Below, in pieces: positions 1,101 to 7,505 of a stretch of 64,000 nucleotides of DNA. Source of the stretch: an uncultured Colwellia sp. (GTDB taxonomy: Bacteria; Pseudomonadota; Gammaproteobacteria; Enterobacterales; Alteromonadaceae); NCBI GenBank assembly GCA_963974965.1, contig CAXBEX010000004.1, forward strand, positions 21,978 to 85,977, in the 5' to 3' direction. Position 1 is the first letter of the stretch, and the number at the start of each line of letters is the position of its first letter. A program made the position numbers and the translations under genes. Below the pieces are notes generated by a model, which made no database searches, was not told where the DNA came from, and saw only the letters and a program-made list of their open reading frames with translations.

Positions 1101-1718
1101 TTGTCTTTAACAACTATACATTTAAGCAAAGCCACTTTTATCCTCAGTGCGCCAGATATTCGAAAATTACCAGAAGACAGTGGTATTGAAGTAGCTTTCG
1201 CTGGCCGATCTAATGCCGGCAAATCAAGCGCCTTGAATACATTAACAAATCAAAAAAGTTTAGCACGAACCAGTAAAACGCCTGGTCGTACTCAACTTAT
1301 TAACGTGTTCGAAATTGGCGACAACAAACGCTTAATTGACTTACCTGGTTACGGTTTTGCCAAAGTACCATTAGAAATGAAAAAGAAATGGCAAAAAGCA
1401 CTGGGTGAATATCTAGAGAAACGTGAAAGTCTCAAAGGTTTGGTGATATTAATGGATATTCGCCACCCACTAAAAGATTTAGACATGGATTTAATTCAAT
1501 GGGCTGCCGATAGCGAATTACCCGTTTTAGCCTTGTTAACAAAATGTGATAAATTATCTCAAGGTAAATGCAGTACAGAAGTGTTAAAAGTAAAAAAAAT
1601 ATTAGCCCCATTAAATGCGGACATAAAAGTTCAAGCATTCTCATCGCTAAAACGCACCGGTGCTGAACAAGCAGATACCATTATTTGTGATTGGTTTTTA
1701 GAAGAACTTGAGCAATAA
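1101..1718 (+). CDS. yihA: Ribosome biogenesis GTPase YihA/YsxC (EngB)
   Basis: G1 [10 protein letters not shown]2 SKTPGRTQ, G3 DLPGYG, G4 TKCD; TTG start. Confidence 0.97.
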
Positions 1719-2277: not shown

Positions 2278-2363
2278 AAAAAAAACCAGTAGCAAGGCTA
2301 CTGGCACATGTAAGCTATGGGGAAGCTAAAATAAAATTATTACAATAAGTGTTCATTAGGAAC
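2278..2363 (-). ncRNA. Candidate small RNA, paralog 1 (~86 nt)
   Basis: TTTACA-18-TATAAT promoter, predicted +1 at G2363, 5' GTTC...GAAC hairpin, core TTGTAATAATT, terminator CCAGTAGC-CTT-GCTACTGG plus U8. Homologous to 7352-7442. Confidence 0.7.
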
Positions 2364-2369
2364 AAAGCT

Positions 2370-2399
2370 ATTATAGAGTAACCACTCTACAAATGTAAA
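2370..2399 (-). promoter_or_regulatory. Sigma70 promoter of sRNA paralog 1 with overlapping TAGAG-N6-CTCTA palindrome (2374-2389)
   Basis: -35 TTTACA (2399-2394), -10 TATAAT (2375-2370). The inverted repeat TAGAGT-AACC-ACTCTA lies in the spacer and overlaps the -10. Confidence 0.65.
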
Positions 2400-2481
2400 G
2401 CACAAATAGTATAAATACTCTATTTTCTTTGATTTGGATCAAATTTCTTATACTTGTGGTTATGTGGATCATCACAAATCA

Positions 2482-2497
2482 TGAGAACTGCGTCACA
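2482..2497. promoter_or_regulatory. CRP-like site
   Basis: TGAGA-ACTGCG-TCACA, 9/10 match to TGTGA-N6-TCACA, between the divergent sRNA and peptidase promoters. Confidence 0.4.
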
Positions 2498-2761
2498 TCA
2501 TGAGAAAATTTAACATTCTATTTACAGTTTGTGTATGTGAATCGACACTACATGTGAGATTAGCAGCTCTTGCCCATTAACTATCGAATTTGTTTCTGGT
2601 GTTAATTTTTTGATGAAACAGCCTCTTCCGTGAGGCATGGCCGACGTTAGTTTATTTCTTAGCCTATGTTTGATTATTTCCTAGATCCTAGTCTATTCTT
2701 AGAGATTCTACATATAAAGGAATACAATACGCATTCACATAATAATAACTAGGGCTTCAAA

Positions 2762-4849
2762 ATGCGATACAGTCATATAGTATTAATTGTTTTATCCTCA
2801 CTGTTTGCAATAACGAACAGCTTCGCTACCGAAAACGACACCCCGTCTAAACGTTTTACCGCTATGCGGGTGTTTGATATGGAGTATGCAACGGATCCTC
2901 AGATTTCGCCTGATGGCAAACAAATTGCCTATGTGCGTCATTCTATGGACAGAATGAACGACAAAGACAAAGGCCAAATCTGGCTGATTAATATTGATGA
3001 TGGTATCCACCTGCCGCTGATTGATGGAGGCGCTGTCTCTCACTCACCTCGATGGTCTCCGGATGGAAAAAGCTTACTTTTTGTTACCGCAACTCAAGGT
3101 ATACCTGAATTAAGGTTATATTATTTTCAGTCGGATCGAAGTATCGGATTAGCCCAATTTATCAGCGCCCCTTCACGCGCCATTTGGTCGCCTGATGGAA
3201 AGCACATTGCCTTTAATATGTTTGTAAAAGGTAAAAAGCCTAGTTTTTCAACACCGGTTACCAAGCCCGAAGGTGCAAAATGGAATGATGCAGTAAAAGT
3301 ATTTGACGATCTCTCCTTTCGATTTGATGGTGTAGGTTATTTACCTGAAGGGACAACTCAAGTGTTTACATTGCCGGTTGAGGGCGGTTCGCCACGTCAG
3401 TTAACACATGGTAATGTCAATTTGAATACATCAACTTGGTTAGATAATGATACCGTTTTAGTCACGGGCAATACCGCAGCAGATCGTGATATGGATTTCA
3501 TTGAAAGCGAAATATATGCCATTGAATTGAGTGACTTGTCGATGAAAGCATTGACCAGTCGTGATGGCCCAGATAGCGGAGCTACCGTGTCACCCAATGG
3601 AAAAAACATCGCCTATATTGGTTATGATGACAAGGTGTTGTCCTATCAACAAAACAATTTGTACCTAATGACTGCCGATGGTACTGGTCAACGAGAGCTA
3701 GCAGCTGATTTCAAAGGCAGTATAGGTCAAATTAAATGGGAATCTAATAGTAAATCACTCCTATTTTCCTCTGAAGATCACGGATTTATTAGCTTGTATC
3801 GTGTTGACCTAAAAGGCCGAGTATCCAAGATAATGACAGGAATAGGCGGAGGGTCCATCGGTCGACCCTATGCTGATGGAAGTTTTTCTATCAGTAGTCA
3901 GTCAAAAGCCAAAATTGCCTTTATGGCAGGGTTTTCCGATCGGCCAGCCGAAGTTGGAGTGATCGATTATAAAGGTAAAAAACAACAAATATTGACCAAG
4001 TTGAACGATGATTTACTGCCTTATCTTGAAATGGCAAAAGTTGAGGAGATAAAAGTTAAATCCAGCCATGATGGAAAAGAAATTGAAGCTTGGGTGGCTT
4101 TCCCTCCTGATTTTAAAGCGGATGGCAGTTTTCCTATGATACTTGAGATACATGGTGGCCCATACACAATGTACGGCCCTTACTTTGCAAGTGAGATCCA
4201 ACGCTACGCTGCCGAAGGTTATGTAACGGTTTGGTCTAACCCACGAGGTTCAACAGGTTACGGTGAAGACTTTGCACTGGAAATCGACCGAGCTTATCCA
4301 GGTAATGATTATCACGATTTAATGAGTGTAGTGGATGAAATGGTTGCTCGTAAATATGTAGACAACAAACGTTTATTTGTAACAGGTGGTTCTGGTGGCG
4401 GAATTTTAACTGCTTGGATTGTTACCAAAACCAAACGGTTTGCAGCGGCGGCCTCTATAAAACCAGTGATAAACTGGATGACAATGGCATTAGCTGGCGA
4501 TATAGCATCTTATGTAAGACGTCACTGGATACGTGAAGACCCTTGGTCTAACCCTGAGGCCTTTCTAAAGTTTTCGCCTATCCGCTATGTGGATAAGGTA
4601 CAAACCCCAACGTTGATGATGGTGGGAGAAGAAGATTATCGAACGCCACCATGGGAAGCAGAACAATTCTATACTGCGCTTAAAATGTTAGGTGTAGATA
4701 CTGCACTTATTCGAGTGCCAAGTTCACCCCATTATATTGCCTCACGTCCTAGCCGTTTGATTGCTAAAACCGATAATATAATGGGGTGGTTCGCTAAATA
4801 CGATCCGGCGAAAAAAATAAAGGATAAGAAAGATACTAAACAAGATTAA
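2762..4849 (+). CDS. Secreted S9-family (prolyl oligopeptidase/acylaminoacyl) peptidase
   Basis: Signal peptide, PD40-like SPRWSPDG beta-propeller repeats, IHGGP, nucleophile GGSGG, catalytic Asp (EEDYRTP) and His (SPHYI). Confidence 0.92.
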   Translation: MRYSHIVLIVLSSLFAITNSFATENDTPSKRFTAMRVFDMEYATDPQISPDGKQIAYVRHSMDRMNDKDKGQIWLINIDDGIHLPLIDGGAVSHSPRWSPDGKSLLFVTATQGIPELRLYYFQSDRSIGLAQFISAPSRAIWSPDGKHIAFNMFVKGKKPSFSTPVTKPEGAKWNDAVKVFDDLSFRFDGVGYLPEGTTQVFTLPVEGGSPRQLTHGNVNLNTSTWLDNDTVLVTGNTAADRDMDFIESEIYAIELSDLSMKALTSRDGPDSGATVSPNGKNIAYIGYDDKVLSYQQNNLYLMTADGTGQRELAADFKGSIGQIKWESNSKSLLFSSEDHGFISLYRVDLKGRVSKIMTGIGGGSIGRPYADGSFSISSQSKAKIAFMAGFSDRPAEVGVIDYKGKKQQILTKLNDDLLPYLEMAKVEEIKVKSSHDGKEIEAWVAFPPDFKADGSFPMILEIHGGPYTMYGPYFASEIQRYAAEGYVTVWSNPRGSTGYGEDFALEIDRAYPGNDYHDLMSVVDEMVARKYVDNKRLFVTGGSGGGILTAWIVTKTKRFAAAASIKPVINWMTMALAGDIASYVRRHWIREDPWSNPEAFLKFSPIRYVDKVQTPTLMMVGEEDYRTPPWEAEQFYTALKMLGVDTALIRVPSSPHYIASRPSRLIAKTDNIMGWFAKYDPAKKIKDKKDTKQD

Positions 4850-4884
4850 CTAAAAAAAGTGTAAGTGCGGTCTCTTAATAATTT

Positions 4885-5127
4885 GTGTCGCACTTTACAT
4901 TATCTTTGTTATTTATCGGTGGAAAAAGCATAACTTTAATAGCTGCCAAGGTTAATAGTCGAAAAATGCTCGAAATCGGCATATTAGTATTCCTAAATGC
5001 TATTGCTACCGCATCAGTGATCACTTTATTACTCATGTGGACGGCTGAAAGTATTGCTCAAAGTGCAGGAATTACAGCAAATAAGGCAAAAGAACTTAAA
5101 CAGGTAACCGATAAATTCTCATTTTAG
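4885..5127 (+). pseudogene. Possible relic of an MCP C-terminus
   Basis: The ORF starts at GTG with no clear RBS. Segments NAIATAS and AESIAQSAGITANKAKELKQVTDKFSF resemble MCP tails (QIATA...ELQQLVSQFKV). No hairpin-tip motif. Confidence 0.2.
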
Positions 5128-5204
5128 GATAATTATCTTTTCTCACTTCAAAGCTTTTCACGTCAAAATTAACGTCCTATGTCGCTTTATTCTTCATTTA
5201 CAAT

Positions 5205-7184
5205 CTACACCTTAAACGTGCTCGCCATATCTTGTAATGAAGCCGCTAACCTTGCCTGTTCTTTAGCTGTTACTGATATTTGATTTGCACCTGTGGCCGT
5301 CTCTATTGATTTTTCTTCAACAGAAACTACATTTTGTGCCACATCTTGCGTTACTACCGCTTGTTCTTCAATCGCGGTTGCAATCTGATCTGTCATCGCA
5401 AAGATATCACCAACAGACACTGTTATTTCTTCTAATAGGTGCTCAACTTCTTTGGAATTAACAACTGCCTCAGTCGCTTTTTTCTGACTCGTTTCAATCA
5501 CATTATAAGCGGAATTAGCATCACGTTGAAGTGACAAAATAAAACTTTCAATTTCAGCGGTAGACTCTTGAGTACGTTGCGCCAAAGTACGTACTTCATC
5601 AGCAACAACGGCAAAGCCACGCCCTTGCTCCCCTGCTCTTGCGGCTTCAATAGCAGCATTTAATGCCAGTAAATTTGTTTGCTCTGCAACAGATTTAATC
5701 ACATCAACAACACTGGTAATATTCTTACTGCTTTCATGTAAGCTATTAATCTGTGTTGCCAAACCGTCAATCTCTTTCGCTAACGCTTCAATTGAGTGAT
5801 AAGACTTTTGTACAGTTCCTAAACCATTCTTCGCTTTTTCTTCAGCATTTCTTGCTGAATTCGCAGTATTTTGAGTATTCTCAGCCACTTCTTTTACCGT
5901 CGCTGATAGCTCTTCAATCGCGGTTGCAATTAAGGCGATACCGTTTTGTTGTTCAAATAGTGATTGAGAATTATATTCACAAGTTTGTGCCGTTTCTTCA
6001 GCCGCTGAAGCTAATGTCATACTTGAAGATGAAATATCTTTAATTACACCAGAAAAACCACTTAACGTTTTGTTTAATGAAACTGAAATTTGACCTAATT
6101 CACTATTTCCTTCGTACGGGCTTTGTACTGTTAAATCATTTTCCTGTCGAACTTTATACAAAACATTAGTTAAGCTTTTAACTCTACCTGTAAGTTCATT
6201 AATAACATAAAAACTAATCGCTAACGCCAGCGTTATTAACAGTGTACTCACAATGATATTAAGCACCATTGCGTTAAATGCATCGCTTTGTTTCACCCCA
6301 ACCAAAGCTAGTATTTTATTGCCCAAATGATTTTCTATCTTTTTAAGCTGACCTATTCGTGCTGTTGATTGGGCAAACCAGTACTCTGCTTCAACACCAA
6401 AGTCGTTTTGTTTAGTGTTAGCGATTGCACGCATTTTACCCACTTCTTTTACTGCACTGTGATCAAGCTGTTCATTAAAAAAACGTTTGTTGTCTGTATT
6501 GCTAAAAGACTTAAAGTTATCAAAATAGGTATTTTGCTCACTCACTAAGGTTATGAATTTTATAAACATACCGGCTCCAAAGGCCTGTTTTGCAAAAGTA
6601 TTGCTCAATACCGCTCTTTCAATACCAGCACGCTCCTTTCCTTGTAAAAAGTTATAATAAGCGATGGTCTCTTTCGTCACTAAGGCATCAGAGCTAATTT
6701 CAGCATTTAATATGATAACACTTAATAATTCTTTATTTAATTGGGTGTAATAAGCTAATGCCTCCCCAAAAGGTATTGACTGTGCATCAACTTGTTGACG
6801 TATTGAGGCTATTTTTTGTAACGCTTGTTCAATAGAAGCATTCAACTGAACAATGCTATTAATGGTAAGGTTACTCTCTTGCCAAAACTTGGTTTTTTTA
6901 ATGCTTTTTTGATCGGTATTTTGACGTTGGCTTTTTAATTTATTACCGAATTTACTCCCTTTAGATCCTAAGAAACCGGCGGTCATACCCCGTTCTTTTT
7001 GTAGTTCATGCACTAACTCACTATAAACAACTGACAATTCAGTTAAAGGAGCAATGGTAGACATCTCATTTTTAATAGTTACATTATCTATTATGGCGCT
7101 AATGCTTAACCATAAAAACCCCATCATAGGTAAAGTGAGCAAAGTGAAGATTTTCTTTCTAAAAGAAAGATTAGACATATTCAT
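5205..7184 (-). CDS. Methyl-accepting chemotaxis protein with NIT (nitrate/nitrite-sensing) domain
   Basis: Two TM segments, NIT signature [11 protein letters not shown]...[14 protein letters not shown] region, hairpin tip [33 protein letters not shown]. Confidence 0.92.
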
Positions 7185-7280
7185 ATGTTTTCCAAAATTT
7201 TTTAGGTAATAAATTATTTAGCTGTATGAGATGGTTTGGGTATAGTACCAAAATTTACATGAACTATTCCTATGGACTTT

Positions 7281-7308
7281 AGTATAGACAAAGTATAGAC
7301 AAAGTATA
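7281..7308. repeat. 11-bp direct repeat x2.5 upstream of the MCP
   Basis: AGTATAGACAA AGTATAGACAA AGTATA. Confidence 0.8.
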
Positions 7309-7351
7309 TTTTCTTTCCAACTTCATGCTGTAACTACAGTTAGTTTTAGGC

Positions 7352-7442
7352 AAAAAAAAACCGGTAGCAAGACTACCGGTGGATTAGCGATGAGGAGAGC
7401 TAGAATATTCAATTATTACAACAAGCGTTCACATAAGGGAAC
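7352..7442 (-). ncRNA. Candidate small RNA, paralog 2 (~91 nt)
   Basis: TTGTTT-17-TATGAT promoter, predicted +1 near G7442, GTTC...GAAC hairpin, core TTGTAATAATT, terminator CCGGTAG-TCTTG-CTACCGG plus U9 with a compensatory pair relative to paralog 1. Confidence 0.7.
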
Positions 7443-7449
7443 GAAAATA

Positions 7450-7478
7450 ATCATAGAGCAGATACTCTAATAAAACAA
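7450..7478 (-). promoter_or_regulatory. Sigma70 promoter of sRNA paralog 2 with TAGAG-N6-CTCTA palindrome (7454-7469)
   Basis: -35 TTGTTT (7478-7473), -10 TATGAT (7455-7450). Palindrome in the same position as in paralog 1. Confidence 0.6.
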
Positions 7479-7482
7479 GCGA

Positions 7483-7505
7483 TAAATGTAATTAAATTAC
7501 ATTTA
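7483..7505. promoter_or_regulatory. Perfect inverted repeat, HexR-like operator
   Basis: TAAATGTAAT-TAA-ATTACATTTA (10-bp arms). The core TGTAATTAAATTACA resembles the gammaproteobacterial HexR motif TGTAAT-N3-ATTACA. Confidence 0.45.

Follow-up and report, generated by a model that had tools for sequence, protein, structure and literature searches.

The DNA analysed here is a stretch of 64,000 nucleotides (hereafter the window) from an uncultured Colwellia sp. (GenBank contig CAXBEX010000004.1), in which two intergenic units on the minus strand, designated A and B, align with each other over their promoters and bodies. They are probably two real, independently transcribed sibling genes of an undescribed family of base-pairing small RNAs (sRNAs) whose function would probably depend on Hfq. 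Comparison with related genomes places this family in the chromosomal slot otherwise held by the sRNA Spot 42 (gene spf), and it appears likely that Spot 42 was displaced there in place by the precursor of B, a copy of a previously unrecognised neighbour of spf, while the upstream input from the regulator HexR was kept.

Both units were found as an earlier note on this DNA had described them, each equipped with its own promoter, fold and terminator. The coordinates proposed there hold as well, except for the transcription start of A, where the G of GTTCC lies at position 2363 instead of 2365. The starts of A and B were deduced from promoter geometry, and the two units are composed of the following parts:

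2278..2363, minus strand: putative sRNA A transcript (about 86 nt), the engB-proximal paralogue, as judged from its fold, its terminator and its conservation in 22 genera.
2363..2351, 2350..2328 and 2327..2313, minus strand: 5' hairpin (stem-loop 1, SL1), single-stranded seed CUUAUUGUAAUAAUUUU and second stem-loop (SL2; AGCU-UCCCCAU-AGCU) of RNA A.
2305..2285 and 2285..2278, minus strand: terminator and U8 tail of RNA A.
2370..2399, minus strand: core promoter of A, with -35 TTTACA (2399..2394), an 18-bp spacer and -10 TATAAT (2375..2370), matching the consensus at 11/12 positions and kept in orthologues.
7352..7442, minus strand: putative sRNA B transcript (about 91 nt), the paralogue that is polA-proximal in other genera, as judged from its fold, its terminator and its orthologues.
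7442..7427, 7426..7403 and 7402..7385, minus strand: SL1, seed CUUGUUGUAAUAAUUGAAUAUU and SL2 with a CUCCUC loop of RNA B.
7380..7360 and 7360..7352, minus strand: terminator and U9 tail of RNA B.
7450..7478, minus strand: core promoter of B, with a weak -35 TTGTTT (7478..7473), a 17-bp spacer and -10 TATGAT (7455..7450), read from the sequence, its layout being kept in orthologues.

The two RNAs share a 5' hairpin (GUUC..GAAC), an unpaired A/U-rich stretch of about 22 nt with the invariant sequence UUGUAAUAAUU, the short hairpin SL2 (AGCU-loop-AGCU) and a GC-rich terminator of 9 bp. In the DNA, these correspond to the GTTC/GAAC hairpin, the block TGAAC(A/G)CTT(A/G)TTGTAATAATT, a TAGCT block and the terminator CC(A/G)GTAG..CTAC(T/C)GG followed by U8 or U9. 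The SL2 stem of unit B has only 3 bp in the window, with CGCU as its 3' arm, and the SL2 loop exposes a C-rich anti-Shine-Dalgarno motif, which reads UCCCCAU in A and CUCCUC or UUCCUCAU in B. Both bodies fold better than shuffled sequences (z = -3.25 for A and -3.89 for B), and a consensus scan recovers both terminators and the 11/12 sigma70 promoter of A. A conserved reading frame was not found in either unit: the AUG of unit A is lost in orthologues, and that of unit B is immediately followed by UGA. An own promoter, an A/U-rich single-stranded region, an intrinsic terminator with a long U tail and the lack of an open reading frame (ORF) make up the architecture of Hfq-dependent sRNAs, and A and B would by this architecture act in trans by base pairing.

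The family is absent from Rfam: no match was obtained at the gathering thresholds, and permissive searches (E <= 10, run on short stretches) returned only matches at chance level, such as Qrr (17 bits), ErsA (15.6) and MicF (20.5), frnS (18) being another such weak match of the Rfam searches. A search with a covariance model (R1), as proposed in the same note, detected the family in 73 of the 201 genomes and 22 of the 59 genera of the family as defined by GTDB, nearly always in two copies located 10-60 kb apart. Among the other Colwellia genomes sampled, 34 of 36 carry a sequence of the family, mostly twice, and pattern matches extend to Thalassotalea, Litorilituus, Thalassomonas and unclassified Colwelliaceae. 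Beyond the single compensatory pair recognised between the terminators of A and B, compensatory changes occur in the family at 6 of 8 pairs of the terminator stem. The 5' hairpin varies between GUUC/GAAC, GUUC/GGAC and GUUCU/AGAAC, and one genus has AUUCC/GGAAU with a G-C pair changed to A-U; this covariation of SL1 was read from folds of the individual sequences and not from the covariance model, because the MAFFT alignment misplaces the 5' hairpin. The SL2 stem is nearly invariant across the family, its loop always exposing CCCC or CCUC, and the loops of the siblings usually differ by one base, the engB-side copy having CCCC and the polA-side copy CCUC, apart from a few polA-side Colwellia copies with CCCC.

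It is exceedingly improbable that the units are something other than trans-acting sRNAs, be it leaders or attenuators serving the genes downstream or members of a mobile repeat. Unit B does lie 170 nt upstream of a gene for a NIT-domain chemoreceptor on the same strand, as would be expected of a leader, but A runs convergent to engB with no gene downstream of it, each unit is closed by a strong terminator with a U8-9 tail, and the neighbouring genes vary among the genera while RNA and promoter stay constant. As to a repeat, which the earlier note had named as a possible refutation, blastn and the covariance model agree on exactly two copies in the 4.4-Mb genome of the organism, which therefore do not represent a dispersed repeat; the presence of two copies per genome rules out the mobile-repeat idea, and the promoter is conserved. 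A further 18-nt match (C7:99068) lies in the same sense within an ORF and was therefore discarded as chance.

Spot 42 is among the most conserved gamma-proteobacterial sRNAs, and the gap between polA and engB is a long-lived home of sRNA genes. In many genera carrying the new family, the CCUC paralogue (B) immediately follows polA and shares its strand, and the CCCC paralogue (A) is convergent with engB. One genome has a single family copy, located between polA and engB (L174). The family is thus found in the very location of Spot 42, on the polA strand between these two genes, of which the window itself keeps only the adjacency of copy A to engB:

1101..1718, plus strand: engB (yihA), GTPase gene convergent with sRNA A and synteny anchor of the Spot 42 slot.

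The gene order around the two units is cytochrome c, engB/yihA, S9 peptidase, NIT-domain chemoreceptor, B and ubiE-ubiJ-ubiB. The arrangement polA -> spf -> <- yihA is known from E. coli and Aliivibrio (PMC3295665).

The distributions of Spot 42 and of the new family do not overlap among the genera of the GTDB family. The Rfam model of Spot 42 (RF00021) finds no match at E <= 0.001 in any of the 22 genera bearing the new sRNAs, and the lone match among 37 Colwellia genomes (26.6 bits) is at chance level, while Spot 42 is present in 14 further genera belonging to this GTDB family, and seven more families of the order have it too. In many Alteromonadaceae genera (loci L206-L219), Spot 42 has a short form of about 83 nt that scores 35-62 bits and therefore falls below the Rfam gathering threshold of 80 bits, leaving it unannotated by Rfam-based pipelines; a HexR box, but no obvious CRP site, is present in its promoter. 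In the sister genera, the spf promoters carry an identical HexR box 7 bp before a CTTGnn -35 element, which matches the layout upstream of B:

7487..7501: HexR box TGTAATTTAATTACA upstream of B, centred at about -52 and located 7 bp upstream of the -35 element, with a 12/12 half-site match.

The identical slot and the spf-type HexR box of B could also be taken to mean that A and B are fast-evolving orthologues of Spot 42 which have drifted past recognition, and a short string common to Spot 42 and B (TTCTA[T/G]CTTTC, noticed by eye) points in the same direction. However, units A and B give no match to RF00021, neither at the gathering threshold (80 bits) nor even at E <= 10, the sequence GUAGGGUACAGAGGUAAGAUGUUCUAUCUUUCA, invariant in the Spot 42 of the sister genera, is absent from both, and B resembles A far more closely than it does any Spot 42. 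Neither the Spot 42 5' sequence GUAGGGUACAGAGG nor a small ORF similar to SpfP was found in 69 distinct RNAs of the family. Moreover, Spot 42 and a homologue of A occur side by side in sister lineages, so the two are different genes; the proposed orthology is largely refuted by this coexistence and appears very improbable. The new RNAs share with Spot 42 the slot polA -> sRNA -> <- engB, the Hfq-type appearance and the size (about 80-110 nt), and copy B shares the HexR box and its spacing to the -35 element with spf of the sister Alteromonadaceae genera. In contrast to Spot 42, they lack any RF00021 match in sequence or structure, the characteristic 5' end and the SpfP-like ORF, and they are present in two copies with a palindromic operator in the promoter spacer.

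The homologue of A next to Spot 42 was detected by searching the spf loci with model R1 with the filters switched off. The best matches correspond to a second terminator-ended element, referred to here as sRNA X, that lies downstream of spf at a distance of 80-250 nt, is encoded on the same strand and precedes engB; an Rfam scan of the spf loci detects Spot 42 only and not X. The architecture of X comprises a 5' hairpin, ACACCCUGUUG, an A/U-rich stretch, UAGCUUCUCCCC..GCUA and a terminator, to be compared with ACACCUGUUGUAAUAAUU..UAGCUUUCCCCAAAGCUA in the A copies of other genera, and the blocks ACACC(C)UGUUG and UAGCUUCUCCCC..GCUA are common to X and the family. The promoter of X carries TTAGAG(T/C)AAATACTT(T/C)AA over the -35 region, a counterpart of the second operator of A (O2, see below). 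The motif TAGAG(T/C)AAATACTT(T/C)A is enriched across the order, with about 135 matches compared to about 45 for a control pattern in 301 genomes, and at least five families have it after spf. Copy A thus appears to be the orthologue of the previously unrecognised spf-neighbour sRNA X of the sister lineages. As side observations, the spf-engB gap of four loci from sister genera with the short Spot 42 of about 83 nt (L202, L211, L213 and L214) holds another terminator-ended element with GUGUGUGUUUUCUCUC and without the TAGAG motif, perhaps a more diverged version of the sRNA next to spf, and four loci from another family of the order (L236, L239, L241 and L243; family f9) contain an TAGAGTTAATACTTTA element at a different position, upstream of a CTTTGC..TATAAA promoter, which could reveal another member of the regulon.

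From these comparisons, the ancestral locus would have had the order polA -> spf (Spot 42) -> sRNA X -> <- engB. In the ancestor of the Colwellia/Thalassotalea clade, the body of Spot 42 would then have been lost, and a copy of X together with its core promoter and operator would have come to sit behind the HexR box of spf, giving rise to B. A positional analogue of X is VSsrna24 of the Vibrionaceae, a glucose-repressed sRNA downstream of spf that is bound by Hfq in V. cholerae (PMC3295665, PMC7148568); it was reported from Aliivibrio and Vibrio as an RNA of about 60 nt limited to the Vibrionaceae (PMC3295665). Like the sister-lineage orthologues of A, it is located directly downstream of spf and before engB, but the one Vibrio-like locus in the data set (L144) shows neither a TAGAG promoter element nor an R1 match downstream of spf, as searched with filters off and without comparison to a VSsrna24 reference sequence.

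The assignment of the box upstream of B to HexR is based on the 15-bp consensus TGTAATTAAATTACA (PMC11906056). The genome contains four perfect boxes, including the B box and one between zwf and a gene of the RpiR/SIS type (hexR), and a box with 11/12 matches is present between gapA and gnd. Copy B therefore shows the sequence features of a HexR regulon member, namely a box near the promoter in a genome that encodes hexR and carries boxes at zwf and gapA. Boxes with at least 10/12 matches occur in 11 of 14 B-type promoters of Colwellia and in all 10 of those from other genera. [quoted passage not shown] The siblings would receive different additional inputs, since A carries an FNR-type box in Colwellia:

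2429..2442: FNR-type box TTGATCCAAATCAA upstream of A, centred at about -72.5 and restricted to A-type promoters of Colwellia.

This TTGAT-N4-ATCAA box is perfect in the window, matches at 9/10 or more positions in 22 of 36 A-type promoters of Colwellia and has a class-I-like position. No such box was found at the matching position in B-type promoters or in other genera, and sRNA A shows no similarity to FnrS.

The two RNAs would most likely act by pairing with mRNAs at their ribosome-binding regions, using the C-rich loop, the A/U-rich seed or the two together; the SL2 loops are complementary to Shine-Dalgarno sequences (GGGG, GAGG). This feature is shared with ErsA (Pseudomon-1, RF01719) of Pseudomonas and anti-hemB/ncS04 of Burkholderia, which also occupy the polA-engB slot and expose a C-rich anti-Shine-Dalgarno loop in a hairpin, and the new RNAs might accordingly belong to a deep engB-linked lineage of such sRNAs instead of forming a separate family. 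Pseudomon-1/ErsA is indeed the second-best Rfam match of unit A by E-value in a 121-nt search (15.6 bits, E = 0.41), aligning UGUUGU and the CCCC hairpin. However, this score is far below the gathering threshold of 50 bits and no better than those of Qrr or STnc490 in the same search, and unit B has no ErsA match at all. The promoters differ as well: ErsA is transcribed from a sigmaE/AlgU promoter, whereas the motif GAACTT-N16-TCnAA of that type was not found in the promoters of the new family, which read TTTACA-N17/18-TATAAT and are thus of the sigma70 type, with a palindromic operator in addition. A deep relationship of the family to ErsA and anti-hemB-type sRNAs may exist, but their membership in one and the same lineage seems rather unlikely.

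Over the spacer and the -10 element, the promoters carry a palindrome, which occurs in both copies (O1) and has a second, weaker version in A (O2):

2374..2389: operator O1 of A, TAGAGTGGTTACTCTA, centred at about -18.5 and overlapping the first two bases of the -10 element.
7454..7469: operator O1 of B, TAGAGTATCTGCTCTA, positioned relative to its -10 element as in A.
2407..2422: second, weaker operator O2 of A, TAGAGTATTTATACTA, centred at about -51.5 and located 33 bp (three helical turns) from O1.

The sequence TAGAGNNNNNNCTCTA occurs exactly twice in the 64 kb, compared to 0.02 occurrences expected from 100 shuffles, and in both cases it lies over the spacer and the -10 element, its last TA being the first TA of the -10 hexamer (TATAAT and TATGAT). 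The earlier note had pointed to TAGAG-N6-CTCTA in an identical register with differing spacers (TGGTTA and TATCTG), and this observation extends well beyond the window: 66 of 73 promoters from 22 genera keep all 10 core positions, with 34 distinct spacers among those 66. In a set of 41 different 16-mers, conservation is 93% or higher at positions 1-5 and 12-16, and positions 7-9 are nearly random. The palindrome is best described as a 16-bp element TAGAGY-N4-RCTCTA (TAGAGT-N4-ACTCTA in the window). A site at the O2 position matches at 9/12 or more in 30 of 36 A-type promoters of Colwellia. Outside Colwellia, the O2 of A-type promoters reads TAGAGTAAAGACTTTA, overlaps the -35 element and is located 21-22 bp (two helical turns) from O1. 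Copy-number variants of the sRNA genes were also observed (L192 in genome G253 and L027 in G014): one genome has three tandem copies, two of which lack the O1 palindrome, and another has two A-type copies 200 bp apart.

Because of its symmetry, its free centre, its position over the polymerase footprint and the phased site pairs, the palindrome most likely represents a repressor operator for a dimeric protein, which would bind over both promoters and block RNA polymerase; the location of O2 two or three helical turns upstream of O1 would allow cooperative binding in copy A. Some candidate regulators were considered. The motifs ascribed to ArgR, NarP, GacA/UvrY, RcsB, TrpR, NrdR, MerR-type and TetR-type regulators do not match the palindrome, and the same is true for RccR with its motif TGTAGT-N3-ACTACA (PMC5489143). 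Readings of the promoters as being of the sigmaE, sigma28 or sigma54 type do not fit. The genome scan suggested in the earlier note yielded 3 perfect operator sites in the genome. A perfect 20-bp palindrome AATAGAGTTTTAACTCTATT containing a perfect TAGAGT-N4-ACTCTA is located right after the stop codon of groEL and before its real terminator (C8:3720-3739). Operator-like sites with 11/12 matches lie upstream of pheA (C5:192864), the his leader/hisG (C21:74361) and serA (C10:51453) among the few intergenic near-matches; these three amino-acid biosynthesis promoters hint at an amino-acid regulator, but the sites are single 11/12 matches and that of pheA coincides with its likely -10 element.

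Taken together, the fullest account would be that a duplicate of the neighbouring sRNA took the place of Spot 42 in situ with retention of the HexR module, that HexR signalling was thereby rewired to other targets, and that both siblings are gated by an undescribed, dedicated dimeric repressor of TAGAGT-N4-ACTCTA for which the genome offers almost no other sites. This account is proposed only tentatively, the replacement by itself being regarded as likely. The following points weigh against the main interpretation of the locus. The homology scores between A and X are weak (17-27 bits with R1), so that their relationship has to be argued from position, promoter motif and shared blocks taken together. 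In the operator scan of the genome, the number of near-matches was at chance level and no candidate protein emerged; a regulator of the Lrp/AsnC type found no support, as none of the 7 genes of that type has an upstream operator-like site above 8/12, the Lrp of this genome presumably having an E. coli-like helix-turn-helix. Target prediction with RNAduplex over 3776 translation-initiation regions performed no better with A and B than with shuffled sRNAs, and the best and longest seed match, in the 5' untranslated region of a gene for a TonB-dependent receptor (C7:17248-19803), had to be dismissed because conservation of the site is lacking in five or six orthologues. Finally, the right half-site of O1 overlaps the -10 element, and its CTCTATACTT form resembles an extended -10 element of the sigmaS type, so part of the conservation could be due to promoter function, and the ancestral TAGAG element of the sister lineages overlaps the -35 element (centre at about -39), a position that suits an activator as well as a repressor.

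The last two points can be extended to a different interpretation of the palindrome as an activator or dual-function site, or partly as promoter architecture, derived from an ancestral TAGAG..ACTTYA at -35 and with the CTCTA half constrained as an extended -10 element. A centre at about -39 for the sole TAGAG element of the sister lineages corresponds to a class-II activator position, the -35 element of B is weak, and several B-type promoters read CTCTATACTT, which is close to the -10 consensus of sigmaS. On the other hand, TAGAG, the left half, falls within the spacer, a region in which no contact to sigma is expected, and is nevertheless conserved equally with the right half, while the central 4-6 bp are free. 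Moreover, a dimer bound at -18.5 would occlude the polymerase, and cooperative repressors typically show a helical phasing like that of O1 and O2, which are spaced by 22 or 33 bp. We therefore assign the activator or promoter interpretation a minor share of the probability and continue to regard the palindrome as a predicted repressor operator.

Sibling sRNAs under a shared regulator are well known, as in PrrF1/2 with Fur, OmrA/B with OmpR and Qrr1-5 with LuxO. The new pair resembles these systems in consisting of paralogous sRNAs with near-identical seeds and one protein-binding motif in both promoters. It differs from them in the diverged inputs of A and B, with the HexR box on B and the second operator, plus the FNR-type box in Colwellia, on A, and in the anti-Shine-Dalgarno loops, which are usually one base apart. 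All testable points of the earlier note were borne out, and it was incomplete rather than wrong, as it had overlooked the Spot 42 slot and the loss of Spot 42, the HexR box on B, the second operator and the FNR-type box on A, and the wide reach of the family. A direct repeat (ATACTTTGTCT-ATACTTTGTCT-ATACT; window 7270-7300, minus strand), which follows the terminator of sRNA B and precedes the start of the NIT-domain chemoreceptor gene, may be a regulator site for that gene.

In summary, A and B appear to represent a new sRNA family of a known general type with an unusual history of gene replacement. It is a widespread family missing from Rfam and from annotation, occurring as a pair in 22 genera and, in several other families, apparently as one gene adjacent to spf, which also means that annotation pipelines overlook a second, unrecognised gene beside spf. 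The locus provides a clear and testable case of a probable sRNA gene exchange with retention of an upstream regulatory module: the HexR box would have been kept, while the core promoter, now with a new operator, and the RNA body would have been replaced. Apart from a strongly conserved orphan operator, this adds a predicted link from HexR to sRNAs in marine heterotrophs. If the proposed account is true, signalling of the carbon flux via HexR would have been rewired onto a different set of targets, with both siblings gated by a dedicated sRNA repressor.

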